Shown here: positions 43,596 through 62,189 of the stretch, piece after piece
How positions within the stretch are numbered: position 1 is the first letter of the stretch
Layout: each line of letters starts with the position of its first letter
Assembly (NCBI GenBank): GCA_038231455.1
Contig: JBBRLI010000001.1
Location: 192,001 to 256,000, forward strand
DNA from: Vulcanimicrobiales bacterium
GTDB taxonomy: Bacteria; Vulcanimicrobiota; Vulcanimicrobiia; Vulcanimicrobiales; Vulcanimicrobiaceae
Length of the DNA stretch: 64,000 bases
Direction: 5' to 3'
Notes under the pieces: model-generated
The model's input: only the letters and a program-made list of their open reading frames with translations
Database searches by the model: none
What the model was told of the DNA's origin: nothing
Made by a program: the position numbers and the translations under genes

Positions 43596-43701
43596 GCGCT
43601 GAACTCTCCCCTACCAAATGGTTGGCCCTCCTACGGTAGCAAACCCGGGACGTGGGGTCAAGGCGACGGGGCCCGCTCGGTTGCTTTGCGAACAGAACGG
43701 G

Positions 43702-45168
43702 ATGGCAAGTCCGCATCCGCGCAGCGTGGTCCGCCGCGCCGCCGACATCGCCGCCGAGTCTCTTCCCGAAGACCGGCTAGTCGCGGCGTTCGGCAAGCTC
43801 GTCCATCAGGTCTACAGCAAAGCGCCGGTTCGGGTAGGCCTCTTCTCCGGCGAAGAACTGCGCGTCGAATACGCGCATTTACATCCGCACAACATCGAGA
43901 TCTTCGATTTACCGGAGAGCGATCTGCATGTCTTGCGCGCCGGCAACACCGTTCAGCGCGCCGGCGAAACACTCGTTCCGGTACGCTATGCCTCGCGCAC
44001 ACTCGGCGTAATCGGCGTTCGGCCCGATGCCCCCATTGTCGATCCCGACGTCCTGGAGACATGCGCCGTAATTCTCGCAAGCTCGCTCAATGCCGCACGA
44101 TTGACGCTCGCGAACGTCGCGCTGGTCGATCAGGTCGGGCACGACCCGCTTACGGGCGTTGCGAACCGCCGCCGCTTCGACGCCGCGCTGATCAACGAAT
44201 GGGACCGCATGCGTCGCAGCGGCAAGCCGCTCTCCGTCATGATGGTCGACATCGATTTTTACAAAGCGTTCAACGACCGCTACGGACATCAGCGCGGCGA
44301 TACGTGTCTCCAACTGGTAGCAAAAGCGCTGGAATCGTGTGCGGCCCGTGCAGGCGAATTGCTCGCGCGCTACGGGGGCGAAGAGTTCGGGGCGATCTTG
44401 CCTTCATGCGATGCAACGACCGCGATCCTCGTCGCCGAACGGATGCGATCGACGATCGCGGCGCTCAACATTCCGCACGAAGGGTCGTCCCTCGAACGCG
44501 TCTCGATTACGGTCGGCGTGGCGACGATGATCCCCGATGCCGTGCAGACCTCGCACGAGTTCTTCGCCCGCGCCGACCACTTCGCGTACGATGCAAAGAA
44601 GAACGGCCGCAATCGCGTGGTTGCTGTCGGCTACGAGAGTGTCGAGCCGCCGATCATGCGCACGGCACCGACTCACGTGAATCTCCCCACGCATCTTGCA
44701 AGCGACGAAGACCATGAAGCGCTCGACGAACTCGAGCGCGCGCTCGTGCGCACGCCGCTGGTCACGCTCGTTGGCGCCGATCCCGCCTACCTCATGCGGC
44801 TCGCCTTACGCGCCGGCGTCGAAATTTCACACGCCTTTGAAGACGGCGTTTTCTATGCCGAACTTGCGACGATCGACGATTCCGAAGACGTCATTTTCTC
44901 GATCGGGGCTGCGCTCGGATTACCGCACGACCCAAGCAACGAAGGCGAACGACTGCTCAAACATTTGCGCAGCCGCTCGCTCTTGCTCGTGCTCGACGGC
45001 TGCGGACCCGTGATGGATGCCGTACGCGCCGTGATCCCATCGATACTCGATGCTTCGCCGCACGTGCGAATTCTGGTCACTGCGCCCGCACCGCTCGAAA
45101 TTGCGCGCGAACGCGTGATTATCGGTCACACCGCGTCGCTCTCCGGGACGGCCCGCGTGTCGGCGTAA
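43702..45168 (+). CDS. Diguanylate cyclase with a C-terminal degenerate STAND/NB-ARC-like domain
   Basis: DPLTGVANRR, DIDFYKAFND.YGH..GD, ARYGGEEF; tail LVTLVG...LLLVLDGC...RILVT. Confidence 0.9.
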   Translation: MASPHPRSVVRRAADIAAESLPEDRLVAAFGKLVHQVYSKAPVRVGLFSGEELRVEYAHLHPHNIEIFDLPESDLHVLRAGNTVQRAGETLVPVRYASRTLGVIGVRPDAPIVDPDVLETCAVILASSLNAARLTLANVALVDQVGHDPLTGVANRRRFDAALINEWDRMRRSGKPLSVMMVDIDFYKAFNDRYGHQRGDTCLQLVAKALESCAARAGELLARYGGEEFGAILPSCDATTAILVAERMRSTIAALNIPHEGSSLERVSITVGVATMIPDAVQTSHEFFARADHFAYDAKKNGRNRVVAVGYESVEPPIMRTAPTHVNLPTHLASDEDHEALDELERALVRTPLVTLVGADPAYLMRLALRAGVEISHAFEDGVFYAELATIDDSEDVIFSIGAALGLPHDPSNEGERLLKHLRSRSLLLVLDGCGPVMDAVRAVIPSILDASPHVRILVTAPAPLEIARERVIIGHTASLSGTARVSA

Positions 45169-46190
45169 AGCTCGCGAATCCGGAGAATCTCCGGCAACAC
45201 GTCATAAAACGCATCGACCAGATACGGATCGAAATGCGTACCGCGCCCGCCATCGATCTCCGCACACGCTCGATCGACCGACCACGCTTCTTTGTACACG
45301 CGTTTGGACGTCAACGCATCGAACACGTCGGCCAGCGCGACGATCCGACCCGAAAGCGGGATTGCCACGCCCCGTACGCCGAGCGGATACCCTCGGCCGT
45401 CGAACCGTTCGTGATGCGTCAGCGCGATATCGGCGGCCATTCGCAAAAGCGCGGATTCGCTATCGCGCAAAATGTCGTACCCGTCGCGCGCGTGCGCTTT
45501 CATGATCGCGAATTCATCGGTCGTGTGTCGGCCCGGTTTGAGCAGAATTGAATCAGGTGTCGCAACTTTTCCGATGTCGTGCATCGGTGCGGCGAGAAAA
45601 ATCGTCTCGCACATCGCATCCGATTCTCCAACCGTGCGAGCGAGCAGTTCGCAGTAGTGCGCCATTCGTACCAGATGCGCCCCCGTCTCGCTGTCGCGAA
45701 ACTCGGCCGCCCGCGCGAGTCGATAGACCGTCTCGCGTTCGCGTAGACGAATTGCCTTGGTCGCCAACTGCACTTCGTGCATGAGCCATTCGGCACGATC
45801 GCTCAGCGCGAGGCGACTGGCGCGCAGTTCGAGCAGGTTGAGCGCGCGCGTTTTGAATTCGACCCGATCGACGGGCTTGATGATGAAATCGTTCGCGCCG
45901 GCCTCGAGCATGGTGCGCCTGATCCCAACCGCGTCGTCAGCGCTCAGCGCGAGGACCGGTGTGTCCCCCATACCGGCAAGGGCCCGAAATTCGCCCAGGA
46001 ACGAGATCGCGTGGCCATCGGGTAGATGGTAGTCGAGCACGACGAGCGCCGGATGTTCGCGCAAGCTAGTGAGGCGTGCATCCGCGAGCGTGCCGACGGT
46101 CTGTACGGTGTAGCCTTCGATTTCTTCAGCGTACTTGCGCAGAAGCGCCGCGTCGATTGGCTGATCTTCGACGATCAGGATGCAAGACAC
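45126..46190 (-). CDS. REC + HD-GYP c-di-GMP phosphodiesterase (RpfG-like)
   Basis: LIVEDQ, ETGAH, MHDIGK, HHERFDGRGYP, ADVFDAL. Confidence 0.95.
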   Translation of the reverse strand: MSCILIVEDQPIDAALLRKYAEEIEGYTVQTVGTLADARLTSLREHPALVVLDYHLPDGHAISFLGEFRALAGMGDTPVLALSADDAVGIRRTMLEAGANDFIIKPVDRVEFKTRALNLLELRASRLALSDRAEWLMHEVQLATKAIRLRERETVYRLARAAEFRDSETGAHLVRMAHYCELLARTVGESDAMCETIFLAAPMHDIGKVATPDSILLKPGRHTTDEFAIMKAHARDGYDILRDSESALLRMAADIALTHHERFDGRGYPLGVRGVAIPLSGRIVALADVFDALTSKRVYKEAWSVDRACAEIDGGRGTHFDPYLVDAFYDVLPEILRIRELYADTRAVPESDAV

Positions 46191-46504
46191 GAATTAACCA
46201 TCCAACGAAAGCAAACATAGCGGCGATAAAGCGCCCCCCACGCGCTCATCACGCGCCCGTGGTCGGCTGACGCAGCAGCTATCACAAGACCTTGCGCCGC
46301 GGTCGTACACGCCGTCGCATCGAGTCCGGCGAATCCGCCTTTGAGCGCATGCGCCTGCCGGGCAACTTCAGGGAACTCGCCGCTCGCGATCGCCCCTTCG
46401 AGTGCAGCGATCTCACCGCAAATCGTCGCGAGCGCAAATTGCAAAAAAGCGCGGCGCCCGATTTCGTCGCCCACAAATGCCTCATCGATATGAGGGAACG
46501 CCAT
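46175..46504 (-). CDS. Hpt (histidine phosphotransfer) domain protein
   Basis: VARQAHALKGG motif; ATG 46504 inferred. Confidence 0.7.
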   Translation of the reverse strand: MAFPHIDEAFVGDEIGRRAFLQFALATICGEIAALEGAIASGEFPEVARQAHALKGGFAGLDATACTTAAQGLVIAAASADHGRVMSAWGALYRRYVCFRWMVNSCLAS

Positions 46505-46668
46505 CGGCTCACGGCTGCAACGCACGCGCACCGCGCGACGCGCGCGGGCTGAAGCGGGATTCATCATCGAACACCCTCGGTCAACATGGTTTTGCGAGAT
46601 TCGACGCTCAGTGCCCCCGCTACGTTGCAGGTTCGTGCAATCGCTGCGATCGTGCGTGCGATCACGTT

Positions 46669-47253
46669 TTAAGTTCGGTGGACGATCAGCCCCTCGAAAA
46701 GTAACGCATCGAGCGTCTCCGCAACGCCGAGACCCGAGCCGGTACGTCCGGGTCGGTACCACTCGACAACCGAATTGGACATGCCGAAAATGAGGCGCGC
46801 GATGAGTCGCGCATCGAGATCTGCACGAATACTGCCGTCGCGCTGCGCCTGCATGATTAACTCCGTGGTCATCCGATCGAACGCACGGCGGCGTTCGAGC
46901 GCGTCGCGCTGAATCGGAGACGTGCCGCGGACGCGAAAGAGCACGGTGAGTTCCGGTAGGAGAGCGAGGGTCGTTTCGGAGACCCGCCGGACGATGTACC
47001 GCAACCGCGCGAGCGGCGGGTCCTCCCGGGCTCCGGCTTCCTCTAAGAGCGCGAAGAGCGCGTCGAGGGCGCGCTTGAGACCGCGTTCGAGAAGCGCCTC
47101 TTTACCGGTGACGTGATGGTAAATGCTCGCCTTGGTGATGCCTGCAGCCCGCGCGACATCATCCATCGACGCTCCGTCGTAGCCGCGCTCCGCGAATACC
47201 GCAAGCGCGACGTCCGTGAGCGAATCGATATCGTAAGGTTTACGCGTTTCCAC
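46669..47253 (-). CDS. TetR family regulator (PaaR-like)
   Basis: FAERGYDGASMDDVARAAGITKASIYHH..GKE; FGMSNSVVEWYRP. GTG start at 47253. Confidence 0.9.
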   Translation of the reverse strand: METRKPYDIDSLTDVALAVFAERGYDGASMDDVARAAGITKASIYHHVTGKEALLERGLKRALDALFALLEEAGAREDPPLARLRYIVRRVSETTLALLPELTVLFRVRGTSPIQRDALERRRAFDRMTTELIMQAQRDGSIRADLDARLIARLIFGMSNSVVEWYRPGRTGSGLGVAETLDALLFEGLIVHRT

Positions 47254-48411: not shown

Positions 48412-48428
48412 TGTCTACCCCGTAGACA
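48412..48428. promoter_or_regulatory. Palindromic site TGTCTAC-N3-GTAGACA (copy 1)
   Basis: Perfect 7-bp inverted repeat, 33 nt upstream of the 48462 ATG; recurs at 53687. Confidence 0.7.
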
Positions 48429-48461: not shown

Positions 48462-50132
48462 ATGATATTGCGACGTCTCGCGCCGCTCTTTCTCGTGGTT
48501 GCCGCGCTTTTTGCGCGTCCTGCCGACGCGCATCCGCTCGGCAACTTCACAATCAATCATCTCGTGCGCGTGACGGCAAATGCGAAGTCGTTGGATCTGC
48601 GTTACGTGGCTGACTTCGCCGAGATTCCGTCATACACGATCCTCCGCCAGATGGCGACATCAGCGAAACCGACGAAGACGCAGCTCGATTCGTGGGCGCG
48701 GACCGAAGCAGCGACGATTGCAAACGACTTGCATGCAAGCGCCGACGGAAAGACCCTCGCGCTTGCGCCGCGCACGGCTCAGGCGAGGACGAAGCCCGGC
48801 GCCGGTGGCCTTCTGACGATTCGACTGGTCGCCTCGTATGCCGGCGATGCTCCCGGTTCGATCGCGCATGTGGTCGTTCACGATGCAACGTACGCCAATC
48901 GTCTGGGCTGGAAAGACATGGTTCTTGCGCCGGCGACCGAGCCGACACAAGAACTTACCGTCTATCCGAACGCTCTGGTGGGGTCGCCACGCCAAACCAC
49001 GATGCTTGCCTTTACGATCGATGCGCGCGGCGTTGCGATTCGAACCGATGCGCCCCGCGCCGTCGAAGGGCAGACCGTAGCGTCGCCGGGTCTCGCGCGC
49101 AGCAATGCACTCTCCGATATGCTCGCCCATGGCGACGGTAGTTTGACGTTCTTTATCGGTGCGTTGCTTTTAGCGATCGGGCTCGGCGCACTGCACGCAC
49201 TCGAACCCGGCCACGGGAAAACGCTGCTTGCGGTTTCGCTGGTCGGCGCGCGTGCGACGATGCAACAAGCAGCAATTCTTGCCGGGGCCTTGACCGTGGC
49301 GCATACGGCGGGCGTACTCGCGCTCGGTGTTGTCGTCCTGTACGCCGCACGCTGGATTGTTCCCGAGCAGATTTACCCGTGGATAACCTTAGGATCGGGC
49401 GCCGTCGTTGCGTATCTCGGCGCGCAAGCCCTCGCACGATACGTTCGTGCTCGCCGTCCGGTCGCTCACGCACACGTCCACGATCATCGCGATGCACAGC
49501 CGCATGCTCACGAACACGCGCACGGGCTCGCGCTCGGCGATCACGACCACCAGCATGGCGAAGAAACGGACGCGGCGTTTGCGGCACGAATGTTCGCCCG
49601 GCATCGTCACGAGCACGACGCAAATCTTCCGCACGCGCACGACGCGGCGCCCCACTCGCACGAGGGCCTCGACGATGAAGCGCACGCGCTTGCGCACCGC
49701 ATACCGGGAACGGCACCGCTGAAATTCCGCACCGCCGTCTTCGCGGCGATGAGCGGCGGAATCGCTCCCTGCCCGGCAGCGCTCGTCGTCTTGCTCGCAG
49801 CAATCCAACTCAAAGAGATCGGCCTGGGTTTGATTCTCATCGTCGCATTCAGCTTCGGACTCGCTGCCGTCCTCACGGGCCTTGGCATCGCCGTCGTTCG
49901 CAGTGCATCGTGGCTTGGCAAGCAGAAACGCTTCGAACTTTTCACGCGCTACGCGCCGCTCGTGTCGGCGTGCGTCATCGCGTTCATTGGATCGGCGCTC
50001 GTCGCGCAGGGTCTCGTCGATCAAGGCGTGCCGCTCCCGCTCATGGCGATCGCCGCGCTCACCCTGCTTGCCATTGCCGGTTACGCCTTCGCCCCGCGCC
50101 ACGCCCACCGCACAAAGTCGGTGGCGGCATGA
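48462..50132 (+). CDS. Ni/Co transporter (RcnA/HoxN-like) fused to an exported N-terminal domain, with a His-rich loop
   Basis: Signal peptide then HPLGNFTINH; GALHALEPGHGK, AHTAGV, long His-rich loop, GIAPCPAALVV. Confidence 0.88.
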   Translation: MILRRLAPLFLVVAALFARPADAHPLGNFTINHLVRVTANAKSLDLRYVADFAEIPSYTILRQMATSAKPTKTQLDSWARTEAATIANDLHASADGKTLALAPRTAQARTKPGAGGLLTIRLVASYAGDAPGSIAHVVVHDATYANRLGWKDMVLAPATEPTQELTVYPNALVGSPRQTTMLAFTIDARGVAIRTDAPRAVEGQTVASPGLARSNALSDMLAHGDGSLTFFIGALLLAIGLGALHALEPGHGKTLLAVSLVGARATMQQAAILAGALTVAHTAGVLALGVVVLYAARWIVPEQIYPWITLGSGAVVAYLGAQALARYVRARRPVAHAHVHDHRDAQPHAHEHAHGLALGDHDHQHGEETDAAFAARMFARHRHEHDANLPHAHDAAPHSHEGLDDEAHALAHRIPGTAPLKFRTAVFAAMSGGIAPCPAALVVLLAAIQLKEIGLGLILIVAFSFGLAAVLTGLGIAVVRSASWLGKQKRFELFTRYAPLVSACVIAFIGSALVAQGLVDQGVPLPLMAIAALTLLAIAGYAFAPRHAHRTKSVAA

Positions 50133-50941
50133 TGCTCGTCGGCGGCGCGTTCACCGTCTTCGTGCTCGGACTACGGCACGGCGCCGATCCCGATCATCTC
50201 GCGGCAATCGACAATGTTACGCGCAATTCGTACGAGCGCTCACCACGTCTTAGCCGCTTCGTCGGCACGCTTTTCGCCGGGGGCCATACCGTTATGGTGA
50301 TGGCAATCTCCGTTCTCGTCGGCTTACTTGGGACGCGTTTTGCCGAGCACGGTGCGATTATCGAACGAGTTGGCACGTATCTCTCCATCGCCGTCCTCGT
50401 CGCGCTGGCCGCGGCCAACATTCGCTCGCTACGACGCGGCGGCACGGGCCTCGTCAGTCTGAAGTCCCGCCTCTTGCCAAAGCAGCTGCGCGAGGGTTCG
50501 AGCGCGCTGCTCGCGATTCCAATCGGACTGCTCTTCGGATTCGGCTTCGAGACCTCAAGCCAAATCGCGACGTACGCCGTTGCCTTCGCGAGCACGTCGG
50601 GCGTGTTCGGCGCGGTGATCGTCGGTGCGATGTTTTGTCTTGGCATGATCGTTACCGACACGCTGGATAGCGTGCTCGTGCACCGGCTCGTTTCCTACCG
50701 GCGGGAAACACTCCCGCGCGTGATGCGGACCTGGATCTGGTCTGTCACGCTCGTCGCGCTCACGGTCGCGGCATATGAATTCGCGCAAGTCCTGGGTTGG
50801 CGGTCGCCGCTCTCGGATATGGCGTTTAGTGCGATGCTCGTCATCGCACTGGTTACGGTTTTCGTCTACGTGTTCGTCAAGACACGCAGCGTCACCGAAT
50901 CCGTCACCATGGCACCCCCCACAGGAGAGGTCATTCCATGA
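50129..50941 (+). CDS. NiCoT family (HoxN/HupN/NixA-like) transporter
   Basis: GLRHGADPDHLAAID, FAGGHT, LFGFGFETSSQ; ATGA overlap with the upstream stop. Confidence 0.9.
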   Translation: MMLVGGAFTVFVLGLRHGADPDHLAAIDNVTRNSYERSPRLSRFVGTLFAGGHTVMVMAISVLVGLLGTRFAEHGAIIERVGTYLSIAVLVALAAANIRSLRRGGTGLVSLKSRLLPKQLREGSSALLAIPIGLLFGFGFETSSQIATYAVAFASTSGVFGAVIVGAMFCLGMIVTDTLDSVLVHRLVSYRRETLPRVMRTWIWSVTLVALTVAAYEFAQVLGWRSPLSDMAFSAMLVIALVTVFVYVFVKTRSVTESVTMAPPTGEVIP

Positions 50942-51711
50942 AATTCCAACGCCTGCTCGGATCGGCCGCGGCTATCGCCGTCGTCGCTTCCGCAGCACTC
51001 ATCTACAACGTGTTCCCGGCTCACGGCTCGGATCACCAAGATGCCCCAACGCTCATCGCGCATCCGGCGGCAGACATCACCGATGTCTTTGTCTTCCCGA
51101 GCCCCGCGAACGCAGCGAACGTCGTCCTTGCGATGGACACGCATCCGCTCATCCCCAAAGGAATGGGCGCGCAGACTTATTTTGACCCGCAGGTCATGTA
51201 TCAATTTAAGATCTCGCACGCCGCATCGGGCGTCGAAGATCAGGTCATCCAGTTCAAAGTGAACGGTTCGGATCAAAACCAGACGATCACCGTTTACGGT
51301 CCGGGCGCACCAAATGCAAGCGGCGTCAATTCGACGTTCTTGCCGACCGCGGCCGGTACCGTGACGTACAACCAAAGCGCAACGCTTCCCAATGGCATCC
51401 AAGTCTTTGCGGGACCGCGCTCAGACCCGTTCTACTTCGACCTCTTCCAGTTTTTCAAAATCATCCCGGATCGCAATCAGGCAAACCAGCCGAACCCGCC
51501 CGCTGCGACGGCAGGATCGTTTAACGGATTCACCACCGCCTTCAATCAGGCGAACAGCTCGAGCTGCTCGACCGCTCAAGCCGTCGACGCACTCTCATCG
51601 AACAACTTCAATGTGCTTTCGCTCGTTGTCGAAGTTCCGAAAGCCCTGCTCACAACGTCGTCACCCGTGATTCACGTGTACGCGACGACCAGCACGCAGT
51701 CCGGTACGTAG
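50938..51711 (+). CDS. DUF4331-like exported protein (N-terminal half)
   Basis: Signal peptide, SDHQDAP...ADITDVFVF, VFAGPRSDPFYFD, FNVLSLVVEVP. Confidence 0.8.
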   Translation: MKFQRLLGSAAAIAVVASAALIYNVFPAHGSDHQDAPTLIAHPAADITDVFVFPSPANAANVVLAMDTHPLIPKGMGAQTYFDPQVMYQFKISHAASGVEDQVIQFKVNGSDQNQTITVYGPGAPNASGVNSTFLPTAAGTVTYNQSATLPNGIQVFAGPRSDPFYFDLFQFFKIIPDRNQANQPNPPAATAGSFNGFTTAFNQANSSSCSTAQAVDALSSNNFNVLSLVVEVPKALLTTSSPVIHVYATTSTQSGT

Positions 51712-51723
51712 GAGAACACCAAC

Positions 51724-52353
51724 ATGCAAGACTTCATCAAGTCCTTCGCCGGAACGATCGCAGCAGTCGCCGGTATCGCCGGCCTGGCAAGTTGCGGCGG
51801 CGGCAGCTCCACCTCACTCCCGCCAGCGCCGAACCAATACGTTCAGATCGAGCGCCTCGCGCGCCCGGCCGTTAAAGAACTGTTCCAAAACTATCAGGCT
51901 CATGATTCTACCAACCGCGCGACTCCGTACAGCGATCCCACGCTCCCGGCCGCGATCAACAGCTTCATGACCGGCGTTGCCGGCCGCTCGCCCGCAATCG
52001 CAAACGCCGTGCAAGGCGTGCTCATCCCCGATGAAATCGCAGCAGATCTCTCGCAAAGCGCGACCTCGGCGGCGTACCTCGGTGTCGAAACCGGCGGCGC
52101 GACGGGTAATAAGTTCGGCGGACGCGATCTGCTCTCGCCCGTCATCGACATCTCGCTCGGCGTCGTGTTCGGCAAAACCGTTCCCGCGCTCTTCTCGACC
52201 ATCCCAGATGACAAAAAAGAAAGCCCCTGCCTAACGACGCAAAACGTGCCTTTGACGGTGCCCGGTGGCAACGCCCAATACACGTCGGCCGCACAAATCG
52301 GTGCGGCGAATAACGAGACGGCAACGTTCCCGTATCTCGGGACGCCGCACTAA
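51724..52353 (+). CDS. DUF4331-like lipoprotein (C-terminal half)
   Basis: Lipobox LASC; QIERLARPAVKE, GGRDL...VIDISL, C-terminal FPYLGTPH. Confidence 0.78.
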   Translation: MQDFIKSFAGTIAAVAGIAGLASCGGGSSTSLPPAPNQYVQIERLARPAVKELFQNYQAHDSTNRATPYSDPTLPAAINSFMTGVAGRSPAIANAVQGVLIPDEIAADLSQSATSAAYLGVETGGATGNKFGGRDLLSPVIDISLGVVFGKTVPALFSTIPDDKKESPCLTTQNVPLTVPGGNAQYTSAAQIGAANNETATFPYLGTPH

Positions 52354-52358
52354 CTCTC

Positions 52359-53684
52359 GTGCGACCTCAGACCCTGTGGGCAGTGGCAGCGAGCGCGGTA
52401 ATCGCGCTCGCTGCCTGGCCCGCCTTCGTCAAAGTCAGTGCGGCCCACGCGATGGCACCCGCATCGACGGCGACGCCGGCGCCGCCCAATCGCGACGATC
52501 TGCGCCGCGATGCCATCGTCTCCGCACTCGAAGCGCAACTGAAAAAGAATGGGCCGAATTTCCTTGTGCCCCGTCTTCTTTCCGCGCAATACTTGCAGCG
52601 ATACCGCGAGCGCGGCGACATCGACGATGTTCTACGCGCGCAGCACGTCGCCCAACTTTCTCTCACCGCGCAAACGCGCGGTAACATCGCAGGCGATCTC
52701 TCGATGGCAAGCGCCCTGCTGACGCTTCACCGATTTAAAGAAGCTCGCGGCTATGTCGATACGGCGGTTCGATCCGCCCCAAGCGAAGACGCTTTCGTTG
52801 CGGAGGAAGCCTCGCTCGACCTCGAGACCGGTGCGTACGAACGCGCCAAACGCGAACTCGCGCGCATTTCGCCGCGCGGCGCGAGTTCCGAACCCGTCAA
52901 AACGATTCAGTCGCGATACGACGAGCTAACCGGCAGCCTCGATGAGGCGCGACGTTTGCTCGCAAGCGTGACGACAACGATGGATACGTACTACGATCTC
53001 TCCGCCGAACGACGTGCCTGGTTCCACATGCGCTTAGGTGAAATGGCCTTCACGGCCGGTGATGTCGATGAAGCGGTCAAAGACGAACGCGACGCACTTG
53101 CCATTTTTCCAAACGACAGTCGGGCATTCAATGCGCTTGCACGGATCGAACTTGCTCGTCACCACGATAAAGACGCGCTCGACGCCGCGACGCGCGGTGC
53201 GGCGATCCTCCCGCTGCCGGAGACACTCGGCTACCAATCGGACGCCCAACGCGCACTTGGCGATGCGGCATCCGCCGACCGTGCGCGCGATGAGATCGAA
53301 GCAATCGAGAAAATCGGCAACGCGCAGCGCGTGAACGACCGGCTCCTAGCCATCTATTATGACGAACACGATCTGAAACTCGATGATGCCTATGCGATCG
53401 CCAAGCGCGAAATCGCGGTCCGTGACGACGTTTTCGCGGAAGACACCCTTGCCTGGGCGGCGGCGAAAATCGGCAAGTGGGACGAAGCCTTGGGATTGAT
53501 TCGCAAGGCGCGCCGATACGGGACCCAAGATTCGCGAATGTTGTATCATGCCGGCGTGATCGAAGAGCACTTCGGGAATTCTAGCGCCGCGAAGTCTGCA
53601 TTCACACGCGCCATCGCCCTCAACGCGTCGTTTCATCCGACGTACGCCGACGACGCGCGCAAGCGCTTACAGACGCTCCTTTAA
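52359..53684 (+). CDS. Exported or anchored TPR protein
   Basis: N-terminal hydrophobic segment, multiple TPRs, R.DVFAEDTLAWA, LYHAGVI. Confidence 0.85.
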   Translation: MRPQTLWAVAASAVIALAAWPAFVKVSAAHAMAPASTATPAPPNRDDLRRDAIVSALEAQLKKNGPNFLVPRLLSAQYLQRYRERGDIDDVLRAQHVAQLSLTAQTRGNIAGDLSMASALLTLHRFKEARGYVDTAVRSAPSEDAFVAEEASLDLETGAYERAKRELARISPRGASSEPVKTIQSRYDELTGSLDEARRLLASVTTTMDTYYDLSAERRAWFHMRLGEMAFTAGDVDEAVKDERDALAIFPNDSRAFNALARIELARHHDKDALDAATRGAAILPLPETLGYQSDAQRALGDAASADRARDEIEAIEKIGNAQRVNDRLLAIYYDEHDLKLDDAYAIAKREIAVRDDVFAEDTLAWAAAKIGKWDEALGLIRKARRYGTQDSRMLYHAGVIEEHFGNSSAAKSAFTRAIALNASFHPTYADDARKRLQTLL

Positions 53685-53686
53685 AA

Positions 53687-53702
53687 TGTCTACAACGTAG
53701 AC
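53687..53702. promoter_or_regulatory. Palindromic site TGTCTAC-N3-GTAGAC (copy 2)
   Basis: Same arms as 48412-48428; lies upstream of the TonB-dependent receptor. Confidence 0.7.
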
Positions 53703-53773
53703 GATCCAGCTCGATTCGGACCGCGTTTTGCGTGGTAGGGTGGTCACACCGCACCGGGCCGAAGGATAGAATC

Positions 53774-56257
53774 TTGCGTTGTTTTCGAGTTGTGCTGCCA
53801 GTGACCGCATTCGTGATCTTGCTGTCCTCCTGCTTACCGGCGCGCGCGCAAAGTCGTCCCGGTGCCGAAACGGCTCCCAGCGCGCGAATGACTGCGACGG
53901 GTTCCATTTACGGGGTCGTCTCCGGACCCGATGGCTTCGAGCTTTTCGGCGCAACGGTCACGCTATCCGGGACCCCGACGCGAATTACGACGACCGACGC
54001 TAGTGGTGCCTTTCGTTTCGACGACGTTGAGGCAGGTCCGCACCGCTTTCGTGTAACCCTCTCCGGGTACGGCGATGCACGTGAAGACGCAATTGCGATC
54101 GACGATCGCGCGGTAACCGTTCGTCTCTACCCGGCAATCGTCGGAGAGTCCCCGAAAAACGACTGCAAGTCGGGAGTCGTGCGAGCGAAATCGTCGCCAT
54201 GTTCGTCGCCGGATCTGAAGACAATCGGACGTGTGCAGGCCCGCGGTCGTGCGGAAAATCTCATCGGCACGGCGACTTCCGCGGCCGAAGGGTTTGTGGG
54301 ACACGCCGAACTAGAGAAGCGACCGATCCTGCGTCCAGGCGAACTGCTAGAAACCGTTCCCGGTGTGGTCATCTCGCAACACTCCGGCGAAGGCAAAGCG
54401 AACCAGTACTATTTACGAGGATTCAATCTCGATCACGGCACCGACATCGCGGTTACGGTCGGTGGTGTCCCAGCGAATATGCGCACCCATGCGCACGGTC
54501 AAGGCTATTCCGACATCAACTGGCTGATCCCTGAGACGGTCAACTATGTGAATTATCGCAAGGGTACCTATAACGCAGACCAGGGCGACTTCTCAACTGC
54601 TGGGGCCGTCAACATGGCGTATTTTAATACGTTACCGCAGAGTATTCTCACCGTGGTGGGCGGACCGTACGGACAAGCGCGCTTCCTGCTCGCTGAGTCT
54701 CCCGCGGTTGCTAAGGACATGCATCTGCTTTACGCCCTCGAATACGCTCACGAAGACAATACGGCACTCGACAAGGACAACTATCGCAAGTACAACGCGC
54801 TCGTGCGCCTGAGCCGTCAGTCCGGAAATTCGTTCTTCGATATAACCGCGCAGGCGTACGATGCAACCTGGAATTCTTCCGACCAAATTCCGTTACGAGC
54901 GGTCCAGCGAGGTGACATAAGCCGCTTTGGACAGATCGACCCAACCGACGGTGGCCGAACGCACCGCTATGTACTATCGACGGACTACGCGCACAGCGAC
55001 GAACGTTCGTCGACACAATTTGTCGCGTACGCGCTCGACTATCGTCTGCGCCTTTTCTCCGACTTCACGTATTTCCTTAGCGATCCGGCCAATAAGGATC
55101 AATTCGAACAGACGGACCAGCGGCTCGTACTCGGAGTCAACGCAAGTCATACGCTACACACCCGTTCCGCCGGCGATTACACCGTCGGCTATCAAATGCG
55201 CAACGACAACATCACCCCGGTATCGCTCTATGCGACTGCCGCGCAGCGTATTCTCAGTACGACGCGTATCGATCGCGTGCTCGAGACAAGCAATGCGCTC
55301 TACGTACAAGCCGACCGTCATTTCTCGAGCAAACTTCGCTTCACCGCTGGACTTCGCGGAGATCTTTACGCGTTCAAAGTCAAGGATTTGCGCCCCGAAA
55401 ATTCGGGCACGACGACGGCCGGAATTATCAGTCCCAAAGCCGCTCTCGCTTATACGGTGAGCCCGAAAACGGAATTTTACGCGGATTTTGGCACCGGGTT
55501 TCATAGTAACGACGCACGCGGAGTTACCGAGCACGTCGATCCGGGAACGGGCCTGAGGACCGACCCGGGCACCGGTCAAATCGTTCAGGGCGCAACCCCG
55601 CTTGTTCGCGCGGTCGGATCGGAGGTCGGCGCGCGCTTTCTGTTCGGGAACGGACTCCGGACGACCGTCTCCCTTTGGAATCTCTTGCTCGGATCCGAAC
55701 TCGTTTTTCAGGGCGATGCCGGAACCACCTCACCAGGACGCCCTAGTCATCGGTACGGCATCGAATTTGCAAACTTCTGGACGCTGAACAAGAATACAAC
55801 ACTCGATGTTGACTATTCGACATCGACTGCTAAGTTCACCGACTACGATCCGGTTGGCCAACATATTCCCGGGTCGGTCAAAGACGTGCTGACCTTTGGA
55901 ATCACGAAAGATGCGTACAAAGCCTTTGGCAGTCTGCGGCTGCGATACTTCGGGCCCCGTCCGCTCATCGAAGACGCAAGCGTCTCGTCAAATCCAACGA
56001 CCACCGTTAGCCTGCAAGCCGGCATCAAGCCCGCAAAAGGGATTAAACTGCAGCTGGACATCTTCAACTTGCTCAACGCCAAAACAAGCGACATCGATTA
56101 CTATTATAATTCCTCGATCCCAAGTGACCCCGCGTACACAAAGCCCGGCTACGCCGGAGCTTGCCCGATCGATCAATGCGGTGTCGGCGTGCCCGACGTG
56201 CACTTCCATCCGATCGAGCGACGCTTACTGCGCTTTACGCTCAGCAAGCAATTTTGA
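53774..56257 (+). CDS. TonB-dependent receptor with N-terminal carboxypeptidase-regulatory-like domain
   Basis: Plug RPGELLETVPG..ISQHSGEGKANQYYLRGFNLDHGTD, THAHGQGY, FHSNDAR, C-terminal Phe. TTG 53774 follows GAAGGA (start uncertain). Confidence 0.92.
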   Translation: MRCFRVVLPVTAFVILLSSCLPARAQSRPGAETAPSARMTATGSIYGVVSGPDGFELFGATVTLSGTPTRITTTDASGAFRFDDVEAGPHRFRVTLSGYGDAREDAIAIDDRAVTVRLYPAIVGESPKNDCKSGVVRAKSSPCSSPDLKTIGRVQARGRAENLIGTATSAAEGFVGHAELEKRPILRPGELLETVPGVVISQHSGEGKANQYYLRGFNLDHGTDIAVTVGGVPANMRTHAHGQGYSDINWLIPETVNYVNYRKGTYNADQGDFSTAGAVNMAYFNTLPQSILTVVGGPYGQARFLLAESPAVAKDMHLLYALEYAHEDNTALDKDNYRKYNALVRLSRQSGNSFFDITAQAYDATWNSSDQIPLRAVQRGDISRFGQIDPTDGGRTHRYVLSTDYAHSDERSSTQFVAYALDYRLRLFSDFTYFLSDPANKDQFEQTDQRLVLGVNASHTLHTRSAGDYTVGYQMRNDNITPVSLYATAAQRILSTTRIDRVLETSNALYVQADRHFSSKLRFTAGLRGDLYAFKVKDLRPENSGTTTAGIISPKAALAYTVSPKTEFYADFGTGFHSNDARGVTEHVDPGTGLRTDPGTGQIVQGATPLVRAVGSEVGARFLFGNGLRTTVSLWNLLLGSELVFQGDAGTTSPGRPSHRYGIEFANFWTLNKNTTLDVDYSTSTAKFTDYDPVGQHIPGSVKDVLTFGITKDAYKAFGSLRLRYFGPRPLIEDASVSSNPTTTVSLQAGIKPAKGIKLQLDIFNLLNAKTSDIDYYYNSSIPSDPAYTKPGYAGACPIDQCGVGVPDVHFHPIERRLLRFTLSKQF

Positions 56258-56322
56258 CGGAATCGGAGACCTCGAAGCGCCGATCGCATGCGACTGTTGA
56301 AGGCGCTTTCAACGCACGAGCG

Positions 56323-57384
56323 TTGCAGCGTGTCTTCGACGATAGCCCCAGTCACGTTCGAGCCAAGGTCATCACCCTCTACGCGCTTCTCGGTTCGGCG
56401 ACGGTCATCGCATGGGGACTCGCGTGGGCAGCGTTCGCGAACCGTCCGCTGCTCCTCGGAACCGCCCTTATCGCCTACACGTTCGGCTTACGCCATGCCG
56501 TCGATGCCGATCACATTTCGGCGATTGATAACGTCACGCGCAAGCTCATGCAAGATGGCAAACGTCCCGTCGCCGTCGGATTTTTCTTTTCTCTTGGCCA
56601 CTCGACGGTCGTCGTTGCACTAACGATCGCAATTGCCGTTGCGGCTGCTCTGATCAAAGAGACCATTCCCGGTTTGCAGACGGTCGGCGGGCTAATTGGA
56701 ACGTCTGTCTCGGCGATCTTTCTCTTTGCGATCGCGCTTTTGAACATCGTCATCTTTCTCGAGGTCTATAAAACGTTTCGTCGCGTTCGACGAGGCGAAC
56801 CTTATGACGAGCAGAGCGTCGAGACGTTTCTCAGTAACCGCGGGTTGATCGGGCGTTTTTTTAAGCCGCTCTTCAAATTCATCGGCAAGAGTTGGCACAT
56901 GTATCCGATGGGCGTTCTCTTCGGACTCGGCTTCGATACGGCATCGGAAGTCGGGCTACTCGGGATCGCCGCCGTTGAGGGCGGCAAAGGACTGCCCGTC
57001 TACGATATTCTCATCTTCCCGTTGCTCTTTACCGTCGGCATGTCGCTACTCGACACAACCGACGGCATTTTAATGCTGGGCGCGTACGGATGGGCATACG
57101 TCAAACCTGTGCGCAAACTGTACTACAATATGAACATCACGCTCGTTTCGATCGTCGTTGCGCTCCTGGTTGGATCGATCGAGGCACTCGGTGTGATTGC
57201 GGGTCAGCTGCACTTGAGCGGCCCGTTTTGGTCTCAGGTGAACGCGCTAACCGAGAATTTCGGGATGTTGGGCTTCCTCATCATCGGCGTCTTCTTGCTG
57301 AGTTGGGGAATCTCTACGATGGTCTATCGGATGCGAGGCTACGATCGCCTCGACGCAGCCGAAACACGCGCCGATTCATTATAA
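56323..57384 (+). CDS. High-affinity nickel permease (NixA/HoxN)
   Basis: Canonical RHAVDADHISAID, FFSLGHSTVV, LFGLGFDTASE, LLDTTDG. Start uncertain. Confidence 0.95.
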   Translation: MQRVFDDSPSHVRAKVITLYALLGSATVIAWGLAWAAFANRPLLLGTALIAYTFGLRHAVDADHISAIDNVTRKLMQDGKRPVAVGFFFSLGHSTVVVALTIAIAVAAALIKETIPGLQTVGGLIGTSVSAIFLFAIALLNIVIFLEVYKTFRRVRRGEPYDEQSVETFLSNRGLIGRFFKPLFKFIGKSWHMYPMGVLFGLGFDTASEVGLLGIAAVEGGKGLPVYDILIFPLLFTVGMSLLDTTDGILMLGAYGWAYVKPVRKLYYNMNITLVSIVVALLVGSIEALGVIAGQLHLSGPFWSQVNALTENFGMLGFLIIGVFLLSWGISTMVYRMRGYDRLDAAETRADSL

Positions 57385-57726
57385 TCAAACCTTCGCGTTG
57401 TCCGTTTCGCCCGCGATCCGGATGCCATCGGCCGCCAACCACTTCCACAAATGCTTGATGTACTCAGCGCCAAAAGTATCTTCGAGAGCGCGCAAATAAC
57501 TGTGGGCTGCGGAGGCGTCGTGCGCGAGCGTTTCGATGGATCGTCGATGGACGGCCATATAGCCCTCGCGTAGACGCAGGCCCCCATGAATCAACTCGAC
57601 AAGCACTTCGCTCGCAGATTTATGAGTATGTAGCATGAGCCGGGCTTCCAGCCACTCGTCGAGCGGCACGGGGAGCCGCGTCGATCGAACGGGACCCATC
57701 GTGCCGGAACCGCGGGTTCGTGCCAT
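57385..57726 (-). CDS. Hypothetical protein with a ribbon-helix-helix-like N-terminus
   Basis: VRSTRLP.PLDEWLEAR...KSASEVLVELIHGGL has a beta-helix-helix pattern; starts 3 nt after the His-rich peptide. Confidence 0.55.
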   Translation of the reverse strand: MARTRGSGTMGPVRSTRLPVPLDEWLEARLMLHTHKSASEVLVELIHGGLRLREGYMAVHRRSIETLAHDASAAHSYLRALEDTFGAEYIKHLWKWLAADGIRIAGETDNAKV

Positions 57727-57729
57727 GCC

Positions 57730-57912
57730 TTAGTGCTCGTGATCGTGTTCGTGATCGTGCGGATGCGCGTGCTCGGTTCCGTCGCCGTGCCGATGCGCGT
57801 CCTCGCCATCGATATGTACGTGCTGGTGATCGTGGTCGTTGTGGCCGTGTTCGTGCGCATGTTCGATTCCGTCGGCATGCGCGTGTTTGTGAATGTGCTC
57901 GTCGTTCTGCAT
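57730..57912 (-). CDS. Histidine-rich metal-binding micro-protein (60 aa, 21 His)
   Basis: AGGAAAGG RBS; alternating H-x-H tracts; located among Ni transporter genes. Confidence 0.8.
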   Translation of the reverse strand: MQNDEHIHKHAHADGIEHAHEHGHNDHDHQHVHIDGEDAHRHGDGTEHAHPHDHEHDHEH

Positions 57913-57972
57913 GGAGTGCCTTTCCTAGCTCGTCGATCAAAATTCGGCCGCGCTCGGCTCCGTTGCCTTCTT

Positions 57973-58623
57973 CTATAGCACCGGGAAGATCAAAAAAACG
58001 ACGCCAACGAGGGCGATAAACGCGCCACTGATCACTTCGCCATATTTTTCGAACGATCCCAGTCGCACGCGCTGCAATCCGGCCGCCGAGTAGATGCAGA
58101 GCACCACGTATGTTGCGATTGTCGAGATGGCAAACGCGACAGACATGATCGCGATCAGGCCGATGCCATATTTTCCGGCGGCGAAGAACGCCGGTATACC
58201 TTCGACCATTGGCGACGAGCCAAGGATCAAAAGGAGCGCGGTGCGATTCGATCGCGGCGCGTGCCCCGGTAGGTCGTGGTCGTGGTCGTGGTGATGTTCG
58301 GCCGCCGATTGCATCTCGCGGATGGACGAGATCGCGATCCAAGCGCCAAAGCCAATTAGCGCGAGACTCGAGATCATCGACACGATCGAACCGAAACGAG
58401 TCGCAAACGCCGCACCCGCGATCCACACGATGAGCCCGATGAATAAGGTCGAGAGCACATGCCCCGTGCCAGCCCGGAAGGCGGCGAGCGCCGTCTCGCG
58501 TCGCGACCAGCGCTGCTGACGCGCGAGTAAGGTAATTGGTACCCAGTGATCGGGGACGATCGTATGCAACACGCCGACGGCGATGACGGCACCGATCAGG
58601 AGCGCTTGCGGAGCGAAGGTCAT
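57973..58623 (-). CDS. Ni/Co transporter-like membrane protein (NicO/RcnA/UreH-like)
   Basis: GVLHTIVPDHW, GTGHVLST, HHHDHDH loop, SSPMVEGIP; about 6 TM helices. Confidence 0.75.
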   Translation of the reverse strand: MTFAPQALLIGAVIAVGVLHTIVPDHWVPITLLARQQRWSRRETALAAFRAGTGHVLSTLFIGLIVWIAGAAFATRFGSIVSMISSLALIGFGAWIAISSIREMQSAAEHHHDHDHDLPGHAPRSNRTALLLILGSSPMVEGIPAFFAAGKYGIGLIAIMSVAFAISTIATYVVLCIYSAAGLQRVRLGSFEKYGEVISGAFIALVGVVFLIFPVL

Positions 58624-58701: not shown

Positions 58702-61008
58702 ATGAAACACGTTAAGAATGTAGCAAAAGATCCCGTTTGCGGAATGGACGTCGATCCGGCCGACTCGGATCAATCGACCGAGTACAACGGAACGACCTAC
58801 CACTTTTGTTCGGCGGGCTGCCGCTCCAAATTCATCGCTCATCCCGCGCAGTTTCTCGAACCGCCGGTCGCGACGCCCGTCGTCGAGGGTGCGATCTACA
58901 CGTGTCCGATGCATCCGCAGATTCGGCAAGTTGGACCCGGCAGCTGTCCGATTTGCGGAATGGCGCTCGAACCGGTGACGGTCTCCGCCGTCGAGCTCCC
59001 AAACGAGGAGCTCCAAGATATGACCCGCCGTTTTTGGATCGGCGCAGCACTCGCACTACCCGTTTTTCTCTTAGAGATGGCGAGCCATATTCCGGCCGTC
59101 CACCTCGAGACACTCGTGTCGGAACGCGCATCGGTTTGGATTCAGTTCGTTCTCTCAACACCCGTTGTGCTCTGGGCGGGATGGCCGTTTTTTGTTCGCG
59201 GCTGGGCGTCGGTTCGTACGCGAAATCTCAACATGTTCACGCTCATTGCGCTTGGAACCGGCACGGCATATCTCTACAGCCTTGTCGCAACATTCGCACC
59301 GGGGCTCTTTCCCGCGGGTTTCCGGATGATGGGCGGCGTCGTGCCCGTGTACTACGAGGCGGCGGCCGTGATCACGGTCCTCGTGCTCCTCGGGCAGGTT
59401 CTGGAGTTGCGCGCACGCGAGCAAACCGGCGGTGCGATTCGCGCGCTGCTCAACCTCGCGCCGAAGAATGCGCGACGAGTTCGTGCGGACGGCACCGATG
59501 AAGACGTCGCCGTTGACATCGTCATTCGCGGCGATCGGCTACGCGTGCGACCGGGCGAAGCCGTCCCCGTCGACGGCGTCGTTCTCGAAGGCCGCAGTGC
59601 CGTCGATGAATCGATGGTCACCGGCGAATCACTTCCGAATTCCAAAGCACCCAGCGACAAGCTGATCGGCGGGACGATTAATGGAACGGGGTCGCTATTG
59701 ATGCGCGCAGACGCGGTCGGTTCCGACACCATGCTCGCCCGAATCGTCGCAATGGTAGCGGAGGCGCAGCGGAGTCGCGCGCCGATTCAAAAACTCGCCG
59801 ACACCGTCGCCGGTTATTTCGTCCCCATCGTCTTGGCGGTCGCACTCGTCGCTTTTGCCGCGTGGGCAATTTGGGGGCCGGCCCCCTCGCTTGCGTACGC
59901 ACTGATCGCGGCAGTTTCCGTCGTGATCATTGCGTGCCCGTGCGCGCTCGGACTCGCAACGCCGATGTCGATCGGCGTCGGCGTCGGCAAAGGCGCGAGC
60001 GCCGGCGTTCTGATCAAATCCGCCGAAGCGCTCGAGCGTTTGGAAAAAGTCGACACGTTGGTGATCGACAAGACGGGCACGCTTACCGAAGGCAAGCCAC
60101 GCGTGACGTCCGTGATTACGGCCCCCGGTCAGACCGAAACCGCAATCGTCGCACTTGCAGCGAGTCTCGAACGATCGAGCGAACATCCCCTTGCCGCAGC
60201 GATCGTTGCAGCGGCGGCAGAGCGCTCGATCGCGCTAAGCGAACCGGCGAATTTCGAATCGATCACCGGCCAAGGTGTTGTCGGTACGATCGACGCGCAC
60301 GCGGTAGCGCTCGGCAATGCGGCGCTCATGAGCGAGCGCGGCGTAGCGCTCGGCGAGATCGAATTGCAAGCCGATGCGCTCCGGCGGAGCGGCGCTACCG
60401 CGCTCTATATCAGCATCGACGGCACGATTGCCGGAGCGATCGCAATCGCCGACCCGATCAAGTCGACAACCGCATCAGCCCTTGCCGACCTCCGCGCGCA
60501 CAATATCCGCATCGTTATGCTCACGGGCGATAACCGCCTCACCGCCGAGTTCGTCGCTAAACACCTTGGCATCGACGAATTCCACGCCGACGTGCTACCC
60601 GAGGACAAAGGGCGGATCGTCAACGAACTGCGCGCGAGCGGTAAGGTCGTCGCGATGGCAGGCGACGGCATCAACGACGCACCCGCACTCGCAGCTGCCG
60701 ACGTTGGCATCGCAATGGGGACGGGGACCGAAGTTGCGATCCAGAGTGCCGGCATGACGCTCGTCAAAGGCGATCTTGCCGGCATCGCGCGCGCCCGCAA
60801 ACTGAGCCGCGCGACCATGCGCAATATTCGAGAGAATCTGGCCTTTGCGTTTCTCTATAACGTGCTGGGCATCCCGATCGCGGCAGGCGTTCTCTACCCC
60901 GTGTTCGGGCTTCTTCTGAGCCCGGTCATCGCAGCACTTGCAATGTCGTTCAGTTCCGTTTCTGTCATCACCAACGCACTACGACTGCGCGGTCTGCGCC
61001 TCTCGTAG
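58702..61008 (+). CDS. copA: Cu(I)/Ag(I)-translocating P1B-type ATPase with YHS and heavy-metal-binding N-terminus
   Basis: KDPVCGM..HFCS..C, YTCPMHP..CPICGM, TGES, CPC, DKTGT, SEHP, YN, MSFSS. Confidence 0.95.
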
Positions 61009-61014
61009 TGCGAA

Positions 61015-61797
61015 TCAGCAATGGTGAGACATCAAATAGGCGGCGTTCCCCAGAAAAATAAAGTGGCTTGAAATGAGAGCGACGAGCACCACACCGGCGA
61101 CGACCGCCGGCCAAAGGCTCATGCTCGAACGTCGTCCGACAAGCGCCCGCAATCTCCACGTAAGGAGCGGCGAGCGTTCGCGTACCGCCGCGCGGACGAG
61201 CAGTGCACGATAACGCTCGACGGCAGCACCCGCGGTCTCACGATCGGCAATCTCTTCGCGTCGCGCATGTCGCCAGCGCTCGAGCGATCGGAAGCCGGGC
61301 AACATCAGAAAGCGCGTGACGATACGCCAGGCAAAGGCCTTGTCCGAATGGCGGCGTGCGATGTGCACGAGTTCGTGGCGCAGTGTGAGTGCGAGTTCCT
61401 CATCATCGAGCGGGTCCATGAAGCCGCGCGAAATGAGAATCTTCGTTCTGCCGTTCGCCGTGAAGCAAAACGATTGCGTAACATCGAGATACGCAGACGA
61501 AGGAACGGCGCATCCGAGCGCGGCCGATTCGCGAGCGAGCAGCAGGCGCAAGCGATCGGGGGGCGGCGTGGCAAAACCCGCCAGTTGATCGAGCCGCTCG
61601 CGCGCGCGAGCGTCGGCCACCACGACGAGTGCCGCGGACACGAGCCCGTAGGCAAGTAAGATTTGCGGCATATACTCGTGCGTAAAGAGCAGCGAGTGGT
61701 ACACCGGATCGATCCCCGAGAGCCAGCAGTACCGGCCGGCAAAATCACCGAGCGGAATAAAGAAAATCAGCGGCCAGACGTACCGGATAAAGCGCAA
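61015..61797 (-). CDS. BlaR1/M56-M48-like membrane zinc metalloprotease
   Basis: ILISRGF, LRHELVH, REEIAD; TM helices; directly follows the BlaI-like gene. Confidence 0.8.
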   Translation of the reverse strand: MRFIRYVWPLIFFIPLGDFAGRYCWLSGIDPVYHSLLFTHEYMPQILLAYGLVSAALVVVADARARERLDQLAGFATPPPDRLRLLLARESAALGCAVPSSAYLDVTQSFCFTANGRTKILISRGFMDPLDDEELALTLRHELVHIARRHSDKAFAWRIVTRFLMLPGFRSLERWRHARREEIADRETAGAAVERYRALLVRAAVRERSPLLTWRLRALVGRRSSMSLWPAVVAGVVLVALISSHFIFLGNAAYLMSHHC

Positions 61798-61799
61798 GC

Positions 61800-62189
61800 T
61801 TACCGGTCCACATCCTGGCGTCGCGCGATTGCCTCAGCGAGCGCGTCGAGATGATCTCCCTGTGCTACGAGTTCGACAAAGCCGTGGATCGCGGCCGACC
61901 CATGGGACTGCATGAGATCGCCAAGTACGCTCGAGACGGTCTTCGCGACCCACTCTTCGCGCGTGAACAGCGCGCGGTAAACGACCGACTTGTGTTCGCT
62001 GCCAACTTTCTGCACGAACCCCTTCTGCACGAGGCGCGAGAGTTCGGTAAAGATCGTCGTATACGCGACCGGCTCGCCGACGGCAATCGATCGATGGACG
62101 TCGACCGGCGTTTGCGAGCCGTGCTTCCAAAGCTGTTCCATGATCGCAAGTTGCCGCGGTCCGAGCGAAATCGACGTGTTGCGATTCAT
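61800..62189 (-). CDS. BlaI/MecI/CopY family repressor
   Basis: LGPRQLAIMEQLW, VAYTTIFTELSRLVQKG, YRA..TREE. Confidence 0.9.
   Translation of the reverse strand: MNRNTSISLGPRQLAIMEQLWKHGSQTPVDVHRSIAVGEPVAYTTIFTELSRLVQKGFVQKVGSEHKSVVYRALFTREEWVAKTVSSVLGDLMQSHGSAAIHGFVELVAQGDHLDALAEAIARRQDVDR

Follow-up and report, generated by a model that had tools for sequence, protein, structure and literature searches.

Secondary nickel permeases are, to our knowledge, thought to work alone. In Helicobacter pylori, nickel import involves the TonB receptor FrpB4 together with NixA, and in Escherichia coli RcnB modulates or receives for RcnA outside the membrane. Nickel/cobalt transporters of the NiCoT family (HoxN, NixA, NhlF; background in PMC2667541) carry an RH(A/G)xDxDH signature. 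The anglerase paper presents Ang-1 and Ang-2 as beta-sandwich domains that start with His1 and are fused to HupE/UreJ-2 permeases, and its authors propose that metal is captured for the attached permease (PMC12537917). Here we analyse a 64,000-nt stretch of DNA (the window) from a bacterium that lives in soil or sediment and belongs to the phylum Eremiobacterota (= Vulcanimicrobiota; genome of 3.71 Mb, 93.7 % complete), in which a NicO permease fused to an anglerase-like N-terminal domain is encoded in a row with a short NiCoT-type permease, two DUF4331 proteins and a tetratricopeptide repeat (TPR) protein. These genes form a conserved envelope module, and we give a probability of roughly 0.5 to the reading that it captures nickel in the periplasm and passes it to two inner-membrane permeases. 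The module is undescribed in the literature as far as searched, where neither DUF4331 nor PF14224 was named and no description of the module was found; DUF4331, NicO and RcnA each have 0 occurrences in the text of the anglerase paper (PMC12537917).

The conserved core and an adjoining receptor–permease pair

The five genes lie on the + strand at 48462–53684. Gene 1 (48462..50132) encodes the 556-aa fusion permease, which combines the anglerase-like N-domain with a NicO/RcnA-like permease (NicO, 42 bits) and a His-rich loop. It is followed by the gene for a short NiCoT-type permease of 270 aa with the motif RHGADPDH (50129..50941; NicO, 70 bits), which overlaps both of its neighbours by 4 nt. 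Next come the N-terminal half of DUF4331, predicted to be secreted (50938..51711; PF14224, 113 bits), the C-terminal half, a predicted lipoprotein with the lipobox ...LASC (51724..52353; PF14224, 55 bits), and a module-specific TPR protein with a hydrophobic N-terminal segment (52359..53684; TPR families). A preliminary description of this DNA had reported tight coupling of these five genes and four different His motifs among the transporters (HALEPGH, RHGADPDH, RHAVDADH and HTIVPDH). Genes and motifs were all recovered by open reading frame (ORF), Pfam and NCBIfam analysis, and the coupling consists of two 4-nt ATGA overlaps followed by gaps of 12 and 5 nt. Its count of four NiCoT/RcnA-type transporters held for three, which are NicO proteins by Pfam and the only NicO genes in the whole genome; the fourth, a protein of 216 aa, matched no family.

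A DUF4331-seeded scan with one genome per species, of which the best 80 of 586 relatives were used, yielded 79 loci, nearly all from Eremiobacterota, and these were screened with the proteins of the window. At the level of sequence, this showed a conserved core comprising the fusion permease, a NiCoT-type permease, DUF4331 and the specific TPR protein. The TPR protein was present in 61 loci, the fusion permease in 59 and a NiCoT in 52 (17 short, 35 canonical); all three partners occurred together in 47 of the 79 loci, and in 43 of the 55 that are 12 kb or longer. DUF4331 stood alone in 12/79. Neighbourhood enrichment of DUF4331 genes with metal transporters, which the preliminary description had named as the test that could refute its interpretation, was strongly positive for this DUF4331 lineage. 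A phylum sample of 201 genomes, one of them unpublished (G128), contained 79 with the TPR protein, which belong to two families within a single class. Of 20 TPR-centred loci of 20 kb (18 relatives), 16 had the fusion permease no more than 10 kb away and 19 had DUF4331, once as a fusion.

Two layouts of the operon were observed. In that of the window, the permease is followed by short NiCoT, DUF4331-N, DUF4331-C and TPR; in the other, it is followed by DUF4331-N, DUF4331-C, TPR and a canonical NiCoT. The short and canonical NiCoT thus fill one slot in the same operon. The two are homologous (hhalign probability 99.4 %, E 1e-21, 219 columns), and the short protein has the NiCoT signature described above. 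It differs from the described NiCoT family in being some 60–100 residues shorter, in scoring below TIGR00802, the HoxN/HupN/NixA model (73 bits vs a cut-off of 333), and in being fused to DUF4331 in some relatives. In relatives, NicO and DUF4331 are combined in one chain in three proteins (P0133 and P0135, 541 aa each, and a 692-aa ORF at L037:10632-12710), and no other observation points as strongly to joint action of the short permease and DUF4331.

Related arrangements were also identified outside the phylum, the breadth of the module being covered for two phyla, Eremiobacterota and Cyanobacteria. On the Nostoc punctiforme plasmid pNPUN01, a helix-turn-helix regulator gene is followed in a row by DUF4331, TPR and fusion permease genes, with identities of 42 % for the TPR protein and 30 % for the fusion permease, which has the same N-terminal HPLGNFTINH. 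Two cyanobacterial loci labelled Chroococcidiopsidaceae display the same DUF4331-TPR-permease layout, and a tblastn search of plasmids with the fusion permease located the N-domain on two Nostoc plasmids only. Distant DUF4331 genes (proteobacterial and Streptomyces plasmids; 25–32 % identity) have neither partner and stand beside tail-fibre-like, peroxidase or other genes. Since these distant members occur in unrelated contexts without the partners, the transporter link holds for a DUF4331 sub-lineage and not for the whole Pfam family, which 1,664 clusters (50 % identity) match with E ≤ 0.001. In a quick tree, the full-length DUF4331 forms, including all ten partnerless ones, fell in one starred clade, and the split forms were transporter-linked.

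DUF4331 is split in the window. The N-half covers PF14224 profile positions 1–94 plus a second stretch and the C-half positions 250–421, both above the cut-off of 27. The halves share one frame with a single TAG between them, and when the TAG is read through the frame covers profile positions 155–421. A gene broken by this one TAG was considered and rejected, the split being conserved among relatives. We regard the split as real because it is found in 56 of the 79 related loci and because the C-half carries its own lipoprotein signal. Most of the 120 best N-half homologues are 255–300 aa in length, and a lipobox was present in 57 of 66 distinct C-half homologues under a strict pattern, the listed exceptions also having Cys in place. 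By pattern, 93 of 97 distinct N-half homologues have S-D-H-x-D immediately behind the signal peptide (A-x-G or V-R-G/S site); one more has the motif slightly displaced, and the other three proteins are second tandem copies. Should signal peptidase cleave at the predicted bond, just ahead of this Ser, DUF4331-N would bear an X-X-His amino-terminal Cu/Ni (ATCUN) site, with His in third place and no Pro in second. Tandem second copies of the split DUF4331, starting with F-D-L-Q/R, were seen in loci L041, L115 and L134 and form a starred clade of their own.

The second DUF4331 of this genome is a full-length protein of 451 aa encoded in a flagellar cluster (contig C9:67161-69382), 3' of an FlgE-like gene. 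The gene on its own 3' side encodes a 289-aa protein that by eye resembles an outer-membrane barrel, and there is no transporter nearby. The model of this full-length paralogue had a predicted local distance difference test score (pLDDT) of 88.7 and a predicted template modelling score (pTM) of 0.86. A search of solved chains with the DUF4331 profile found none by sequence at E values up to 1.

A gap of 47 nt separates the TPR gene from the gene for a TonB-dependent outer-membrane receptor on the same strand (53732..56257; Plug, barrel and CarboxypepD_reg domains), which is followed, also on the + strand, by a canonical HoxN/NixA-type NiCoT with the motif RHAVDADH (about 56254..57384; NicO, 351 bits). 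The latter scores 416 bits against TIGR00802, above the cut-off. Its start is uncertain between 56161, 56176, 56254 and 56323, and the TTG at 56254 overlaps the receptor stop. A TonB receptor directly followed by a canonical HoxN/NixA-type permease recalls the FrpB4/NixA pathway of H. pylori. Here, however, the receptor is accessory, with a homologue in 7 of the 79 DUF4331-centred loci, and the conserved DUF4331/TPR set has no counterpart in that pathway.

Both operons are preceded by the palindrome GTCTAC-N3-GTAGAC, a candidate operator. One copy (48413..48427) lies 35 nt 5' of gene 1 and the other (53688..53702) 30 nt 5' of the receptor gene; the 3.71 Mb genome has no other perfect copy, and window shuffles gave 0.9 expected matches at up to 2 mismatches. 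In a relative (G126), two copies were present 5' of its receptor. In the other loci with the 113-aa gene described next, the palindrome, perfect or with one mismatch, was absent at promoter-like positions. We infer from the common palindrome that the core operon and the receptor–NiCoT pair are probably co-regulated. The obvious candidate for a regulator binding the palindrome is a conserved 113-aa protein encoded on the − strand immediately beyond the canonical NiCoT (57385..57726). It has 31 invariant columns in seven homologues, in which no Pfam family was found even at E 10, including the ribbon-helix-helix type suggested by the preliminary description, and its gene adjoins the NiCoT or receptor in 9 of the 79 loci. 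Extracytoplasmic function (ECF) sigma factor genes were observed beside the module in 5 of 15 Pfam-sampled relatives' loci (L049, L051, L054, L059 and L060), with an RskA-type anti-sigma gene also in L049; control therefore differs between genomes. A search of the window with Rfam at gathering thresholds returned tRNA only, with no B12 or NiCo riboswitch above threshold.

The N-terminal domain of the fusion permease

The gene 1 product consists of a signal peptide, an N-domain of about 200 aa, a NicO membrane domain with the motif HALEPGH and a 95-residue loop that includes 20 His. The N-domain had no Pfam match. Its predicted mature N-terminus is HPLGNFTINH, with HPLGNF standing directly after ...PADA. 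His1 is invariant in 64/64 homologues and is one of 22 invariant N-domain columns, which run from H-P-L-G-N-F on. An AlphaFold2 model of the domain (pLDDT 85.4, pTM 0.79) displays a beta-sandwich whose second and third strands are separated by two helices. Of 48,161 representative solved chains, the one that matched it best was 9gce_A (Z 9.1, root-mean-square deviation 3.4 Å, 136/168 residues aligned), the sole match at Z ≥ 8, with 10 % identity in the structural alignment. The matches that followed were the zinc-uptake proteins ZrgA of Vibrio cholerae (Z 7.1) and PA4063 of Pseudomonas aeruginosa (Z 6.2). Structure 9GCE is an Ang-1 domain of a HupE/UreJ-2 protein with copper bound, and RbAng-1a binds Cu2+ with a dissociation constant of 74 nM and Ni2+ with one of 220 nM through a mono-histidine brace, whilst Ang-2 also binds copper (PMC12537917).

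Sequence comparison did not reveal this likeness. The N-domain profile found none of the solved chains at E values up to 1, 9GCE included, the whole fusion permease returned chance-level matches only against the same chains, and a search of the ESM Atlas with the N-domain yielded unnamed clusters only (best score 0.91). HupE_UreJ_2 (PF13795) was not found in the fusion permease even at E 10, the only family detected being NicO (PF03824). Amongst NCBIfam models, the best match of the permease was the RcnA efflux subfamily (NF007454), at 129 bits against a cut-off of 195.

Judged from the model, the gene 1 protein resembles the anglerases in its manner of working: a signal peptide is followed by an invariant predicted His1, the modelled domain is a beta-sandwich that, as in Ang-1, has helices separating its second strand from its third, and this capture-like domain is likewise fused to a multi-helix metal permease. 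It nevertheless falls outside the anglerase family as defined by the permease, which is NicO/RcnA-like and not HupE/UreJ-2, and it differs further in that sequence search does not connect the domains and in the company of DUF4331, TPR and NiCoT proteins. With E. coli RcnA the protein shares the NicO membrane domain, an HxxxPGHGK-type motif and a long His-rich loop. In contrast to RcnA, it scores below the subfamily cut-off, bears a predicted periplasmic His1 domain of 200 aa and is encoded in a predicted operon with importer-type NiCoTs.

Proposed nickel capture and rival explanations

In the mechanism that we propose, cleavage of the signal peptides would leave two metal-binding tips exposed, His1 at the start of the permease domain and Ser-Asp-His at that of DUF4331-N. 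Outside the membrane, the two DUF4331 halves, of which the C-half is a lipoprotein, would act together with the TPR protein. They would hand metal to both permeases of the core, the short NiCoT and the anglerase-like NicO protein, and on the cytoplasmic side the His-rich loop of the latter would take it up. The TonB receptor and canonical NiCoT, under the same operator, may provide this genome with passage across the outer membrane and with another way of import, with the 113-aa protein as putative regulator. A more specific version, in which DUF4331 and TPR constitute a new class of periplasmic metallochaperone that takes Ni(II) at Ser-Asp-His and delivers it directly to NiCoT/NicO permeases, is put forward tentatively, as something we think possible but would not yet bet on. 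In that version, DUF4331/TPR would be the first partner in the periplasm known to be dedicated to the NiCoT/NicO class, sometimes covalently fused to it. If nickel capture is the right reading, the picture of permeases working alone changes to one in which a conserved set of periplasmic capture proteins is coupled to them in translation and, in some relatives, fused to them. The anglerase idea of 2025 would then extend from HupE/UreJ-2 to NicO permeases, and the widespread DUF4331 family would gain a testable job. The proposal also bears on nickel acquisition by uncultured Eremiobacterota, some of which have [NiFe]-hydrogenases.

The preliminary description had suggested supply to a nickel enzyme such as a hydrogenase encoded elsewhere. 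This is not supported: neither a [NiFe]-hydrogenase nor a urease was found in this genome, 93.7 % complete as it is, nor was CbiC, and the genome showed no B12 synthesis. The genome does encode LarC, the nickel-inserting enzyme of the nickel-pincer cofactor (415 bits), and the sink here may be this cofactor rather than a hydrogenase. A LarA match (32 bits) was dropped, being antisense to an IlvD gene. A CobN match was likewise set aside as a cobalt chelatase and is likely a Mg-chelatase instead, adjoining a NifH-like gene; this 1,322-aa CobN/Mg-chelatase gene near a NifH/BchL-like gene (contig C8:104000-114600, L136) suggests bacteriochlorophyll synthesis genes in this genome.

We cross-tabulated possible sinks in families f1 and f3, comparing 78 module-bearing with 50 module-less genomes. 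Hydrogenase was present in 29/78 vs 7/50 and LarC in 26/78 vs 12/50; one or the other was found in 46 of the 78 module-bearing genomes, and urease added none. CbiC occurred in only 2 of the 201 phylum genomes, and cobalt for corrin synthesis is therefore not the driver. In one genome (G011; locus L043, C1:1722000-1741900), the module lies directly 3' of hypF, a SIS-domain gene and hypE, and 16 kb from a hydrogenase large subunit gene; in the other genomes with module and hydrogenase on one contig, the two are far apart. The same locus holds a CsoR/RcnR-type repressor gene with an ArsP permease gene, plus a TonB receptor gene. Our best guess for the metal is nickel, with the sink unaccounted for in about two fifths of the carriers. 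Organisms with nickel transporters but no known nickel enzyme are reported by Zhang et al. (PMC2667541).

Several observations weigh against nickel capture. The nearest named family of the gene 1 permease is one of efflux proteins, and the cleavage sites that would expose His1 and Ser-Asp-His were predicted by eye with the −3/−1 rule. Ser-Asp-His is present also in full-length DUF4331 copies with no transporter nearby, including the second copy of this genome; as it occurs in that transporter-less clade, it is a family feature and not a mark of nickel context. For both kinds of site, the His1 brace and the X-X-His tip, affinity for Cu(II) equals or exceeds that for Ni(II), and copper is the preferred metal of Ang-1. 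Foldseek found no match in the PDB for the 451-residue DUF4331 model at E ≤ 0.001 (TM 0.06–0.15), and the best Z of the whole model, 7.5 for a starch-adherence protein, is within the background range, by which no new fold is shown. Almost every locus comes from the same phylum; the loci are kin, and their counts describe a lineage and not independent events. The sink cross-tabulation was made by hand, and 32 of its 78 module-bearing genomes were without hydrogenase, LarC and urease. In genus g4, the TPR protein was present in 36/44 genomes, with LarC in 1/44 and urease in 0/44.

Read in the opposite direction, the core would serve nickel/cobalt efflux or periplasmic buffering, with the RcnA-like permease exporting metal that its cytoplasmic His-rich loop has gathered, and DUF4331/TPR modulating or receiving outside in the manner of RcnB. 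The family of the best NCBIfam match, the RcnA-style His-rich loop, the repressor of CsoR/RcnR type in L043, a copper-exporting ATPase adjacent here and in 4 of the 79 loci, and the carriers with no recognized nickel sink are all in keeping with such a role. We nevertheless consider it unlikely, given that the RcnA score is below its cut-off, that a NiCoT-type importer is part of the same operon in 52/79 loci, that a common candidate operator ties the core to the TonB receptor and canonical NiCoT, and that the N-domain looks like a capture domain known in fusion with permeases of the uptake type. It is also improbable, in our estimation, that the module handles copper (or zinc), with the His1 brace and X-X-His tip as copper sites and the NicO-type permeases moving copper. 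That explanation draws on the tighter binding of Cu2+ than Ni2+ by RbAng-1a and the copper bound by Ang-2, on the zinc-uptake proteins ZrgA and PA4063 that follow in the fold search, and on the CopA and BlaI/CopY-type repressor genes neighbouring the locus here. It sits poorly with a canonical HoxN/NixA-type NiCoT inside the operon in 35/79 loci, with the module abutting hyp genes in G011 and with CopA being adjacent in only 4/79.

A role without metal, in which DUF4331 and TPR are surface or structural proteins and the permeases merely frequent neighbours, would suit the full-length DUF4331 among the flagellar genes of this genome, the distant members beside tail-fibre-like, peroxidase or other genes, and a best fold match that is a starch-adherence protein at only Z 7.5. 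It leaves the NicO–DUF4331 fusions, the 4-nt gene overlaps, the presence of all three partners in 47/79 loci and the near-invariant Ser-Asp-His without an explanation, and we regard it as very improbable. The preliminary description had interpreted the locus as an envelope-spanning pathway of nickel scavenging, relay, import and storage. The metal-permease neighbourhood, the fusions, the likeness of the N-domain and the common palindrome lend that interpretation support, whilst the storage peptide, the fourth transporter and the hydrogenase sink dropped out of it.

Local additions and neighbouring genes

The peptide proposed for storage is encoded on the − strand (57730..57912) and identified by its composition, 21 of its 60 residues being His. 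No counterpart was found in the 79 loci, with one spurious match only. The proposed fourth transporter, the 216-aa membrane protein encoded further along the same strand (57973..58623), contains HTIVPDH and an HHHDHDHD loop and has no Pfam or NCBIfam family; a remote relationship to the C-terminal half of the RcnA-like domain was detected (hhalign probability 94.5 %, E 8e-8, 62 columns). Its family is an independent one, which appeared in none of the 79 loci but occurs in 65 of the 201 phylum genomes, including ones without the module. In three genomes the 216-aa gene lies 3–5 kb from a TPR copy, and at the 11 nearest 216-aa loci no His-rich ORF, 113-aa gene or CopA was found within 1.5 kb. 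Because neither is conserved with the module across the 79 loci, the storage step and the fourth transporter are best seen as local additions.

Next door, at 58702–62189 of the window, is a copper unit with a CopA-type P1B ATPase bearing YHS and HMBD domains. On the strand opposite to the CopA gene are genes for an M48/M56-like peptidase and a BlaI/CopY-type repressor, which look like a BlaR1/BlaI-style sensor–repressor pair beside the copper pump. Upstream of the core and with no evident tie to the metal genes, a cyclic di-GMP signalling set at 43618–46762 comprises a GGDEF diguanylate cyclase, a response regulator with an HD-GYP-type HD domain and an Hpt-like protein.

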